64,000 nucleotides of DNA from an uncultured Pseudomonadota bacterium. GTDB taxonomy: Bacteria > Oederibacteriota > Muellerivitia > Muellerivitales > Muellerivitaceae. The notes beneath the pieces were generated by a model. That model saw only the letters and a program-made list of their open reading frames with translations. It ran no database searches and was not told the DNA's origin. Location: the NCBI GenBank assembly GCA_963770835.1, contig CAVYRH010000011.1:32001-96000 (forward strand). The letters run 5' to 3'. Of the stretch, positions 59,217 through 64,000 are shown piece by piece. Positions within the stretch are counted from its first letter, which is position 1, and the number at the start of each line of letters is the position of its first letter. The translations under genes were made by a program, and so were the position numbers.

Positions 59217-59348
59217 AATGAAAAGAGCGCCAAGGCGGCGTTTGATATCCAGGTGGATTTGAAGCTTTAAGCGTATCTTTTAGTGTCACATGCGTGTCAA
59301 ACTCAGTTATGGCTCCTTTGCCAATGTAGGGGTTATAATTTACCCACT

Positions 59349-59654
59349 ATGAGCCCGATGATCACTTTGGACGAATTGGCCTTGGCCGACTTTTGCAAGA
59401 AACGCCATGTCCGAAAGCTTTCGCTTTTCGGGTCAGCGGTGCGTGCCGATTTCAAACCCGGTAGCGACCTCGACCTCTTGGTGGAGTTCGACCCGGGCCA
59501 CACTCCCGGTCTTGCCTTCTTCTCCCTGGCCGAAGAGCTTTCAGCCTTCTTTGGCCGCAAGGTGGATTTAAATACTTCCCGTTCCTTAAGCCCCTACTTC
59601 CGGGACCAGGCTCTTGCCGAGTCCGAAATCCTCTATGACTCGGCACGACCCTAA
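59349..59654 (+). CDS. Minimal nucleotidyltransferase (MNT/MntA-like antitoxin)
   Basis: LSLFGSAVRADF...SDLDLLVEF, GRKVDL. Confidence 0.9.
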   Translation: MSPMITLDELALADFCKKRHVRKLSLFGSAVRADFKPGSDLDLLVEFDPGHTPGLAFFSLAEELSAFFGRKVDLNTSRSLSPYFRDQALAESEILYDSARP

Positions 59655-59985
59655 AGTTTCATTCCTGCAAATGCGGGACACAGTCCAAGAAGTCGTTACC
59701 CTCACCCAGAAGAAAACCCACGACGATCTTCTCAAGGACCGTGTTTTGAACCTTGCCTTAACCCGCCTTTTGGAAGTCCTGGGCGAAGCCGCCACACGCG
59801 TTCCCGAAGAATTCCGCAAGAAATACCCCGGGCTTCCTTGGCAGCAGGTCATCGGGCTAAGAAACAGGCTTATCCACGCCTACGACCAGGTAGACCTCGA
59901 AATCCTTTGGGAAATTGTCTCGGAAGACCTACCACCTTTATCCAAGAATTTGGACCAAATTATTCAAAATTGGGGCGCGGAGTGA
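59635..59985 (+). CDS. HEPN (DUF86/HepT-like) RNase toxin
   Basis: LEVLGEAA, PW..IGLRNRLIHAYD (RX4HXY); overlaps the MNT gene. Confidence 0.9.
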   Translation: MTRHDPKVSFLQMRDTVQEVVTLTQKKTHDDLLKDRVLNLALTRLLEVLGEAATRVPEEFRKKYPGLPWQQVIGLRNRLIHAYDQVDLEILWEIVSEDLPPLSKNLDQIIQNWGAE

Positions 59986-60161
59986 TAACCATCGCCAACC
60001 GCGACGAGGCCCACGGCCGGGGCGTTTCTACCGACGTCATCGAGGCCTCGGCGAAAGCTTACGTCAACGCGGTCAACAAGCTCATGTTGAAGCACAAGGC
60101 CAAGAGCGCCAAGGCGGCCTTTGATATCCAGAAGGGCTTAAGCTTTAGTTTTAATTATGAG

Positions 60162-60195
60162 GCCAGGTGAAAAAATATTTTCACCTGGCTTTTTT
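60162..60195 (+). terminator. Rho-independent terminator after the distal leuA-end copy
   Basis: GCCAGGTGAAAA...TTTTCACCTGGC-TTTTTT. Confidence 0.85.
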
Positions 60196-61860: not shown

Positions 61861-61913
61861 AGTTTTGAAAAGGGTAAAAGCCTTGTCCACGACGGGGACC
61901 CATCGTGGACATC

Positions 61914-62463
61914 GTGCCAGAGGAGGGTTTGCAGAGCCAGCAGGTGAGGGAGTAGGCCGATGAGGGTCAACCCAAGTCCTGACCAGGTAATCACCAGAGA
62001 GCCTGGAAGTCAGCCCCCGGCGTAGGATCGAGAGGTCCTGCCCGAAACGGGGTCATAAACCTCATTTAGTGAGGGAACAATCCAGCAGTCCGCAACATCA
62101 AGTGAATCCTGCCGCTTCGTGAATGGGACACCGAAAGGTGCAAGGGGATGCCGAGCCGCGTGTCTACTGGCGAAGGCCACGATCCCGCTGAAGAATCTGG
62201 TAGCAAGCGGGGCAAGTCCTCCGGAGTATGGGGAACGGAATGTTGGAAAGGCTATGCAAGCAAGCTGGGAGATCCTACCCGCCAAAAGACTTGCCGCTAT
62301 AAGGCTAAAACCGAAAAGAGGCAAGGGTGGGAGGAAGTCGGAGGGGGTCACAGTACCGATGAAGGGGTGGACAACAAAACCACCCTGAGGGAAGGACCCC
62401 TGCTTCAACCATGTGTCTCAAAGAAGGTAGGCGCTGGAGCATGCCCCAAAAGGGCCAACAACT
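61914..62463 (+). mobile_element. Group II intron, 5' part (domains I-III and start of IV); interrupted by the IS and continuing past the window end
   Basis: GTGCC 5' end; AAGTGAATCCTGCCGCTTCGT; GCCGAGCC..GGCGAAGGCC (EBS1 stem); GGGAGATCCT; AAGTCGGAGGGGGTCACAGTACCGATGAAG...GGGAAGGACCCCTGCTT. Confidence 0.85.
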
Positions 62464-62559
62464 GATATGAATGAGCCAGTCAAGCCCGCTGGTTTTTCCT
62501 TTGGTTTTATCCTACTCTTTTCCACCTCAAGGCCCTGCGAAAAGCCCTGATCTCGAAAG

Positions 62560-62725
62560 CCCGGCTTGTTTCGACGATGAATCAAACTGATATTCGCGTG
62601 TTAGACCCATTGCTGGTTCCAGGGACGCAAGATTTTCATTCGTCGGGAGCTGCCTCGATCTCTGATCGTGGGTCGTCGCAGGCTTAGGCCTTTGCGCCAC
62701 AGAGTTGTACCGAGGGTTCTCCAAA
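62560..62725 (-). ncRNA. Bridge/seek RNA of the IS110-family element (ends approximate)
   Basis: Two stem-flanked internal loops whose strands match the reconstructed target and the donor junction. Confidence 0.8.
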
Positions 62726-62770
62726 TCGTTGCCAAGCTTCCGGAAACAGGGTTCTTCCTTCATGACCTTG

Positions 62771-63874
62771 TTAAACCATTCCTGTTGTTTCCTGGGCGAT
62801 GGCCCACACAAATCCAGCCAACTCCCGGGCTACGGCCACCACTACTTTTTGGATGGGCTTGTTACGTTGGGTCATTTTTAGAAACTTTTTGTACAGACGA
62901 TCCTGTGCTCTGCGGGCGATCTTTAAAATCTCCACCGGACAACCCTCCCGCCTTTTTTCTAAAACCACGCCGACCGACTTCCCATGGCGGTAACTCCAAG
63001 CCGATTCCACAAGAATCCGTCTCAAATGGGCGTTCCCGGTCTTGGTGATTCCTCCCCGACGGATTTTTCCACCTGAACTGCTTTCACATATCCCCAAACC
63101 CGCGTAACCCATGAAATTACGAGCGCTCTCAAATCGCCTCAAATCTTGGCCTTCCACCGCCAAGGTCATGGCGCTCAAGGTATCAACCCCTTTCAGGCAC
63201 CTCAAATGCTTGACCAGTTTCCTGTAGGGTTCTTGGCTGGCCATCTCCTCCACTCGGCTCGTCAAACTCCTCAACCGCTCATCTGCCTCTTGCTTCCCGC
63301 GGACATATGCCTCGAAAGTCTCATGCAGTTCCAGAGGTTCGAACTTTTGGGTTTTCAGCCATGCCTCATGGGCTGATCTCCAATTCTTAGCTTCTCGAAA
63401 GATACGACCTTGCCGAAGAAAGAAATTCGACAACCGGTGCCGGGCCTTTTGCCGGTCTTCTAGGGCATCCTCACGAACTCGAACCAGATCCCGACAGGCT
63501 TCCTCTTGGATGGTCGGAACCCGCACTTCCGTCAGCTCTCCCGCCCTCCAAAGACGGGCCAACTTTTCCGCATCTCGGCGGTCTGTCTTCACCCGATCCC
63601 CGGCTTTCACTGGAATTTTCCCAGGGGCGATTACGACGCACTTCAACCCCTTTTGGGTTAATTGCCGGTGGATGTCATATCCACAAGGGCCCGCCTCGTA
63701 CACAAACGTTATTGACCCTCGTCCTTCGTACTTACCCAGCATTTTCCCCAATGCTTTTGGGGTGTTCTCGATTGTAAAAATATCCTTCACATTTTCGGCC
63801 CTAGCCGGCAGGACCGCACCTACCACCGTATCCTTATGGACATCCAACCCGACCACCGTGATATTATTTTCCAT
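62771..63874 (-). CDS. IS110-family DEDD recombinase/transposase
   Basis: GLDVHK, YEAG, KTDRRDA (DEDD); ESSSG serine; ITKTGN.HLR; AVARELAGFVW; GGAGG RBS before the ATG at 63874. Confidence 0.96.
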   Translation of the reverse strand: MENNITVVGLDVHKDTVVGAVLPARAENVKDIFTIENTPKALGKMLGKYEGRGSITFVYEAGPCGYDIHRQLTQKGLKCVVIAPGKIPVKAGDRVKTDRRDAEKLARLWRAGELTEVRVPTIQEEACRDLVRVREDALEDRQKARHRLSNFFLRQGRIFREAKNWRSAHEAWLKTQKFEPLELHETFEAYVRGKQEADERLRSLTSRVEEMASQEPYRKLVKHLRCLKGVDTLSAMTLAVEGQDLRRFESARNFMGYAGLGICESSSGGKIRRGGITKTGNAHLRRILVESAWSYRHGKSVGVVLEKRREGCPVEILKIARRAQDRLYKKFLKMTQRNKPIQKVVVAVARELAGFVWAIAQETTGMV

Positions 63875-64000
63875 GAGCCAGCCCTCCGTATGCGGATAGG
63901 CTCCCTCAAGGAGCAACCCGCGAATTAGGGCCCTTCAACAAGGCCCGTTTTATTTTACGCAGGCCGCTGGCTCATTCATGTTATCTCTGTAGTACCAAAG

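Follow-up and report, generated by a model that had tools for sequence, protein, structure and literature searches.

In the window analysed here, a stretch of 64,000 nucleotides, an insertion sequence with a putative guide RNA lies inside a group II intron, and the locus raises the question whether this guide directs the element to the intron and, if it does, whether the match is an adaptation. A first-pass annotation had proposed an intact, potentially reprogrammable recombinase system of IS1111 type whose guide specifies a site at the start of a group II intron ORF, and had suggested that the element may be a hyperparasite of a retroelement. IS1111 elements with a seekRNA or bridge RNA downstream of the recombinase gene have been described, namely ISEc11, ISKpn4, ISPst6 and ISPa11 (PMC11187229).

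Results

The insertion sequence and its recombinase

The element is 1,523 bp long when its CT core (AG in its own orientation), present at 62462-62463 and at 63985-63986, is counted once. Both 13-bp subterminal repeats are perfect and are followed outward by extensions of 7 nt (AGATAAC) on the left and 3 nt (ATC) on the right; filled alleles are longer than empty ones by exactly 1,523 nt, target duplication is absent, and the non-coding DNA flanking the recombinase gene measures 310 nt downstream against 110 nt upstream. Judged by these sequence characters, i.e. subterminal repeats within the 11-13 bp range, 7/3-nt extensions, no duplication and a long non-coding region downstream of tnp, the element is assigned to the IS1111 group as defined in PMC11187229. 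The recombinase passes the NCBIfam IS110 cut-off and carries both IS110 domains (RuvC-like DEDD, and Tnp with the catalytic serine). Its residues D11, E60, D98, D101 and S266 correspond to the catalytic set of IS621 (PMC11208158); of these, D98 is invariant in the 8 closest homologues and the other four in all 39 that were aligned. The motif before the catalytic serine differs from the IS1111 pattern GL-P----SG by lacking the proline. Domains, catalytic residues and repeats are all present, and the element is intact.

The ends of the element, once joined, are predicted to yield the promoter TTGACT-17-TAACAT. The TTGACN count given in Table 1 took in the distinct elements with recognisable ends (n=69), and among the elements listed with more than 50% identity the register of TAACAT was the same in 24 of 24. 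The circle joint itself was not found in the contigs of four public runs, a result which is uninformative on its absence.

Table 1. Features of the element, its guide RNA and the surrounding intron (window positions unless a contig is given)
Feature	Position	Strand	Basis
28-bp palindromic gene-cassette site, intron 5' exon	61884..61911	+	78 sites in genome
5' part of ORF-less group II intron	61912..62461	+	RF02003 above gathering score; 14 copies
RT-start remnant (ATG in short hairpin) and left half of IS target	62441..62461	+	
IS1111-type insertion sequence	62462..63986	-	6 identical copies, junctions, 1,523-nt skip in public contigs
Subterminal inverted repeat, right end, 13 bp	62467..62479	.	
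-35 box TTGACT, promoter forming only at circle junction (predicted)	62478..62483	-	TTGACN in 69/69 distinct elements
Conserved core of bridge (seek) RNA, ~153 nt	62570..62722	-	27-sequence alignment and consensus fold
Donor guide AUAUCAG + UU	62585..62593	-	9/9 complementary to junction at 62460-62468
Short second (left) donor guide AUC(U), weakly supported	62630..62633	-	ATC invariant, unchanged in L023
Target guide 2, AUCAG-AG-AU, specifies CT-CTGA	62658..62666	-	flank covariation
Target guide 1, GUACAA-CU-C (intron side ACAA, core, +1)	62702..62710	-	flank covariation
DEDD recombinase, 367 aa	62771..63874	-	PF01548 + PF02371; NF033542 above cut-off
Subterminal inverted repeat, left end, 13 bp	63967..63979	.	
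-10 box TAACAT, 17 nt from -35 box across predicted junction	63978..63983	-	
Right target half and start of intron 3' part	63987..64000	+	
Second IS110 (genome G000; L249, L251)	C3:45328, C3:81921, C3:103119 (reverse), C8:165072		

The bridge RNA and its guides

The target-binding loop precedes the donor-binding loop in the RNA, and every motif named in the first-pass annotation was located exactly: the stem CCUCGGU/AUCGAGG, ACAACUCU at 62701-62708 and GAUCAGAG at 62660-62667, as well as AUCU (62630-62633) and AUAUCAG (62587-62593) of the donor loop. The consensus fold of 27 homologous RNAs consists of two stem-flanked internal loops and places both target guides within one of them, in agreement with the loops drawn earlier. 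The fold of the single sequence was modestly better than chance (z -1.83, 9/200 shuffles as good; in a second test z -2.33, 2/100 shuffles as good), and at the level of sequence the covariation of guides with their targets is the strong test of a bridge RNA, ahead of such a fold.

For this test 178 homologue loci were reduced to 83 with recognisable ends, 36 with RNA anchors and finally 21 distinct guide pairs, the element studied here included, the guides being excised by conserved anchors and blind to the target. Out of 5 positions compared with the flank of the same element, guide 1 matched 4.49 on average (1.47 after shuffling, at most 2.57), and out of 4 positions guide 2 matched 2.57 (1.32 after shuffling, at most 2.07); neither observed mean was reached in any of 20,000 shuffles, a count which is not to be read as a probability, related elements not being independent. 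With growing distance from the core the match rate was 0.95, 0.95, 0.95, 0.93 and 0.71 for guide 1, and 1.0, 0.92, 0.44 and 0.20 for guide 2; the +1 base of guide 1 was matched in 22 of 23 guides of the same register. The left and right target guides claimed for the RNA are real in the sense that both covary with the flanks across the 21 pairs. In the stems, 20 of the 26 consensus pairs are invariant and a compensatory change was seen in only one.

Two details of the earlier reading had to be narrowed. The target match of 10 nt holds for its guide part, but its last 3 nt (UGU) belong to a stem that is invariant or near-invariant in the 27 homologous RNAs and are therefore a coincidence; this portion also fails on the RT-coding targets. 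As to the donor guides, L038 and L129 show the right one altered in step with the IS end, and in L023, where the core is AA, it has changed along with the core and both target guides; the left one is reduced to AUC(U) and is unaltered in L023 despite the changed core. The AU of guide 2 is the handshake pair to the donor by the rule of PMC11208158. The donor-loop handshake covaries weakly (27/60 and 16/60 matches), so the 9/9 match to the donor junction may be partly due to chance.

Taken as a whole, we regard it as nearly certain that the bridge RNA is a real guide, and from the covariation among homologues together with the published IS1111 work it would follow that the recombinase can be reprogrammed. 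The DNA encoding guide 1 (62701-62710) is itself a near-cognate target (TACAACTCTGT), and self-insertion was not seen there. A bridge-RNA-like segment of 75% identity, maybe an orphan or a remnant, occurs in another genome (L183, G002:C85), which gave no matching recombinase hit at E 1e-60.

The host intron and the cassette site

Without the IS the ORF-less intron is about 800 nt long; its domains V-VI lie beyond the window and extend to C11:96234. It was recognised as a group II intron by the domain I-IV motif RF02003, by RF00029 on L001 (the only locus matched when Rfam was run on 13 loci), by the domain V fold and by EBS1-IBS1 pairing, in which EBS1 (UGUCUAC, 62161-62167) pairs with the last 7 nt of the palindrome (GTGGACA). 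From this pairing we infer that the 5' splice site probably lies 2 nt before GUGCC. At 61912-61918 a 2-nt extension (UC or GC) before GUGCC is probable, and the dinucleotide tracks the intron type, not the exon; domain VI of this intron lineage is long (>100 nt).

An intron-encoded RT/maturase is absent from the copy in the window, whereas relatives encode an RT of 432 aa; after removal of the IS the start codon gives only 16 aa, a frameshifted remnant of the RT start. The claim that the guide specifies the start of an intron ORF is correct for three other copies, where the site falls on RT codons 7-8, but not for the ORF-less intron of the window. ORF-less group II introns have been called rare in bacteria (PMC4424553), and here there are 14 near-identical copies. 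Four of them have one 5' exon in common, and at least two of these four closely follow the RT of a different intron family, present in 11 copies, an arrangement which is possibly a twintron.

The 28-bp palindrome was present in 23 of 30 other genomes of the family and in 0 of 68 outside it. On contig C15 palindromes separate co-oriented genes, mostly one per interval; palindrome-bounded cassettes were observed on C3, C11, C12, C15, C17 and others, some of them recurring in different arrays. One cassette (C15:15814-17186 of G000, the genome of the window) holds two genes which, by eye, we take to resemble cas1 and cas2. When a tyrosine recombinase was looked for beside the cassette arrays, 12 PF00589 genes were among the matches listed. 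The genome also carries a second IS110/IS1111 element, which shares 30% identity with the first. Of its 5 copies, 4 directly abut the end of a palindrome; four copies have a repeated 16-nt right end, and a relative is likewise found at a palindrome end in G073. Elsewhere in the window (59283-60170) an MNT-HepT toxin-antitoxin-like pair lies between leuA, which precedes it, and a duplicate of the 3' end of that gene (~59986-60145), an arrangement resembling that left by an integration.

Occupied and empty target sites

The genome, that of a soil bacterium, contains six copies of the IS, 100% identical and one of them cut by a contig end, and all six occupy one homologous position of group II introns; the search for further copies gave no unrelated site. 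Three of the occupied sites are in the ORF-less intron and three in its closest RT-coding relatives. The 14 copies of the ORF-less intron comprise 10 empty ones, 3 filled ones and 1 with its contig ending at the site. The predicted empty site CCAACAACTCTGTAG was found ten times in the genome, always within an IS-free copy of the same intron, and the empty allele reads ACAACTCTGT precisely as excision at the core had foretold, not otherwise. Three RT-coding introns are about 90% identical to the ORF-less intron in the 5' part, and all three are filled; with the IS removed they encode the 432-aa RT starting M-P/L-Q-K/R-A-N-N-S-E-D, the CT core spanning codons 7 and 8. The RT of the relatives scores above the TIGR04416 cut-off. 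Three more distant RT introns are all empty, one of them with one mismatch to the guide 10-mer and two with two mismatches.

Three intron variants are occupied, the ORF-less A and the RT-coding B1 and B2 (B1 and B2 are 92% identical), and since they differ within 10-20 nt on both sides of 100% identical IS copies, at least three separate insertions are required. The guide 10-mer ACAACTCTGA differs from each occupied variant by one base, at differing positions, and is the exact intron site in L231, L233 and L237 (G004 and two ORF-less introns of G002); in G073 the site reads AACAACTCCGA in 10 of 10 RT introns and in G010 it reads AACAACTCAGA. The varying +2 base of the target is a Ser wobble position, and on the RT-coding target guide 2 is mismatched at a position where 92% of the homologues match. 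The introns of relatives conserve the site; the guide thus equals the consensus of the intron lineage, and the mismatch that it tolerates falls on the wobble base.

Sites with at most one mismatch to the guide 10-mer numbered 61 outside introns against 17 within them. None of the 61, of which 42 are in ORFs and 19 outside, is occupied, and one of them is the IS's own guide DNA. With 18 intron and 60 other sites, the chance that all events fall in introns is 0.012 for three events and 0.00015 for six; if only non-coding sites were tolerated, it would be about 0.13 (3 events) to about 0.02 (6 events) by hand arithmetic. By itself the guide does not distinguish the intron from the rest of the genome, about 60 non-intron sites fitting it equally well. 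A hairpin is present beside the target in the intron sites; as an added cue or family rule it was rejected, 18 of 68 homologue targets folding as well against 13 of 64 control stretches.

Public runs and related genomes

A joint skipping the IS (1,523 nt, CT shared) was found in contigs of three of the four public runs examined, the empty joint occurring in X1, X6 and the RNA run X15, where X1 may be identical with the source sample. Intron pieces and the empty site were covered in X15, with no coverage of the IS. A run from another study, X10, contains a variant of 1,527 nt that is 98% identical, with 31 differences, none of them in the RNA core, and with unchanged guides; its right end continues in one contig into type C RT sequence, a fourth intron variant, and other flanks may exist among 19 further loose ends of this run.

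Relatives of the IS with more than 61% identity were found neither at the protein level in 40 related genomes nor at the DNA level in 98 genomes with three candidates scored per genome, nor in viral contigs or plasmids. When RT tblastn and intron blastn were applied to the 178 loci, many of which have short flanks, matches were obtained only in the loci of G000 itself. The homologue loci from other genomes (40-62% identity), many of them on short contigs, have other targets, with no intron or RT nearby. Intron targeting is a property of the element and its near variant rather than a trait of the clade, relatives of 67-84% identity lying outside this comparison. A related IS1111 of G024 (L007, L009, L011, L013-L018, L047) has targets whose mutual similarity (GGGTCAG, often GCC) extends beyond the 5 nt of the guide and thereby points to a repeat family.

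Discussion

The explanation that we favour, and hold to be probable though far from certain, is that the IS1111-type element is active and that its bridge RNA was reprogrammed to match the best-conserved part of a single lineage of group II introns, the match being adaptive. This part would consist of the codons for Asn-Asn-Ser-Glu/Asp where the RT begins, within domain IV. As in IS621 and ISEc11, the element would circularise, its joined ends would form the sigma70 promoter, and the recombinase together with the downstream RNA would be expressed from it; the target loop would then read ACAA-CT-CTGA on both strands and the donor loop the junction, and recombination at the CT core would leave the element inserted in antisense orientation relative to the intron, without a duplication. 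A lasting and harmless landing site might be offered by the intron because it is multicopy, renewed by retrohoming, shared across the genera of the family and outside host genes, and in RT-coding introns the insertion would cut the RT gene after codon 7. Mobile elements and repeats are normal targets of IS1111 members, such as attC, REP and Tn21 ends (PMC11187229). Several findings count against the favoured explanation: the near-cognate sites outside introns, none of them occupied, the mismatch of guide 2 on the RT-coding target, homologue loci of other genomes with no intron nearby, and the failure to detect a circle joint or RNA of the IS; 10 of the 14 ORF-less copies and all three distant RT introns are, moreover, empty. 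The hyperparasite of a retroelement suggested earlier agrees with the finding of all copies at one intron site; the guide may not be the sole reason for the preference, and the preference may not be an adaptation.

The most serious competitor, although we consider it rather unlikely, accepts the guide as real but not as shaped by the intron: many insertions would occur at ACAA-CT-CT(GA), and only those in the neutral multicopy intron would persist. Such survival would agree with the roughly 60 sites outside introns that fit the guide just as well, two thirds of which fall in ORFs, the independent events are possibly as few as three, and the unrelated guides and targets of the relatives indicate that guides change easily; nevertheless about 18 non-coding sites outside introns are likewise empty, the variant from another study also abuts an intron, and the guide equals the lineage consensus better than any occupied site does. 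With lower probability, the host might have kept the insertions for knocking out the RT that drives the spread of the ORF-less intron. All three type-B RT introns are filled against 3/13 (or 4/14) ORF-less copies (Fisher p 0.036 or 0.051, on tiny numbers and by a test chosen after seeing the data), the RT-coding introns most closely related to the 14 near-identical ORF-less copies are those of type B, and in G073, where the IS was not found, the type-B sites are intact in 10 of 10. Two of the three type-B copies are, however, alike at their junctions and perhaps descend from a single insertion, three less closely related RT introns are intact, as is another family of introns, and such a brake is compatible with the favoured explanation. 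A stronger form of the thought, to which we likewise give little credence, would make the element a naturally programmed anti-retroelement, with its guide tuned to the lineage-wide RT start, the RT removed and the element kept by the host; if this were true, insertion would deprive the proliferating ORF-less introns of the RT that they need, an RNA-guided recombinase would control an RNA-guided retroelement, and four layers would be stacked, i.e. the cassette site, the intron, the IS1111 in the intron and the second IS1111 in the cassette site.

It is quite improbable that an IS-carrying intron, its domain IV tolerating the cargo, multiplied a single insertion through retrohoming or gene conversion. 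Three ORF-less IS-carrying copies do have different 5' exons, as retrohoming would give, and at 2.3 kb the IS-carrying intron is close in size to the RT intron (2.0 kb), yet this route cannot join A, B1 and B2 and would explain only the copies within one variant, and the insertion falls within the RT-start region, which it disrupts. An assembly artefact from collapsed repeats can practically be dismissed: two contigs (C20, C24) stop at the site or at the IS end, but four of the six copies lie deep inside large contigs with distinct flanks, and public contigs again contain both filled and empty forms, along with two kinds of right junction.

The mechanism is the one published for the bridge or seek RNA of IS1111 elements (PMC11208160, PMC11187229). 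The element resembles ISEc11, ISKpn4, ISPst6 and ISPa11 in its 11-13 bp subterminal repeats with 7-nt and 3-nt extensions, in the long non-coding region downstream of tnp, in the junction promoter and in two short target matches, and its RNA core of about 150 nt compares with 154 nt in the long form of that group (PMC11187229). With IS621 and ISCro4 (IS622) it shares the DEDD and serine residues, the CT core, the order of target loop and donor loop, and handshake positions adjoining the core-pairing guides (PMC11208160, PMC11208158, 10.1101/2025.05.14.653916); it differs from them in that the RNA stands at the opposite end of the element, the part of target guide 1 next to the core measures 4-5 nt, against 7 in those systems, and the left donor guide is very short, and their proteins are only distantly similar to the recombinase (E 7e-7 and 2e-4).

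As regards the target, the IS1111 elements of PMC11187229 are aimed at attC, REP and Tn21 ends and not at the RT start of a group II intron, and the word 'intron' does not occur in the main text of that paper. The literature search returned no IS110 or IS1111 aimed at a group II intron, its scope being main texts and mostly open papers; nor is such an element described in the accessible portions of PMC11376236, PMC6053426 and 10.64898/2026.10.21.760802. A group II intron as the target of an IS1111 element is apparently unreported. The nearest parallel is formed by the twintrons of Methanosarcina, where group II introns home into other group II introns (PMC4424553): there, too, a conserved intron sequence provides a perpetual harmless homing site, but the invader is another intron, whereas in the present case a DNA recombinase with an RNA guide of its own takes that role. 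In integrons, IS1111-attC elements (PMC11187229) and group IIC-attC introns both use the cassette-boundary site, and it is the second IS110 of this genome that shares such a site with introns; unlike attC, the site is a 28-bp palindrome, with the extra layer of an IS1111 inside the intron. An intron-targeting IS1111 subgroup comparable to IS1111-attC did not emerge, RT or intron matches among the 178 loci being confined to those of G000.

The element offers a compact bridge recombinase of IS1111 type whose natural target, donor, promoter and guide rules are legible from its sequence, and the 21 natural guide pairs supply the mismatch tolerance for each position. Strict natural site choice with a guide of about 10 nt could be due to pairing alone, to an added cue or to selection, and the genome is a ready test of it, since filled and empty intron alleles coexist with about 60 unused near-cognate sites. 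Group II introns are added to the mobile elements targeted by IS1111 members, and one mobile element appears to live on another.
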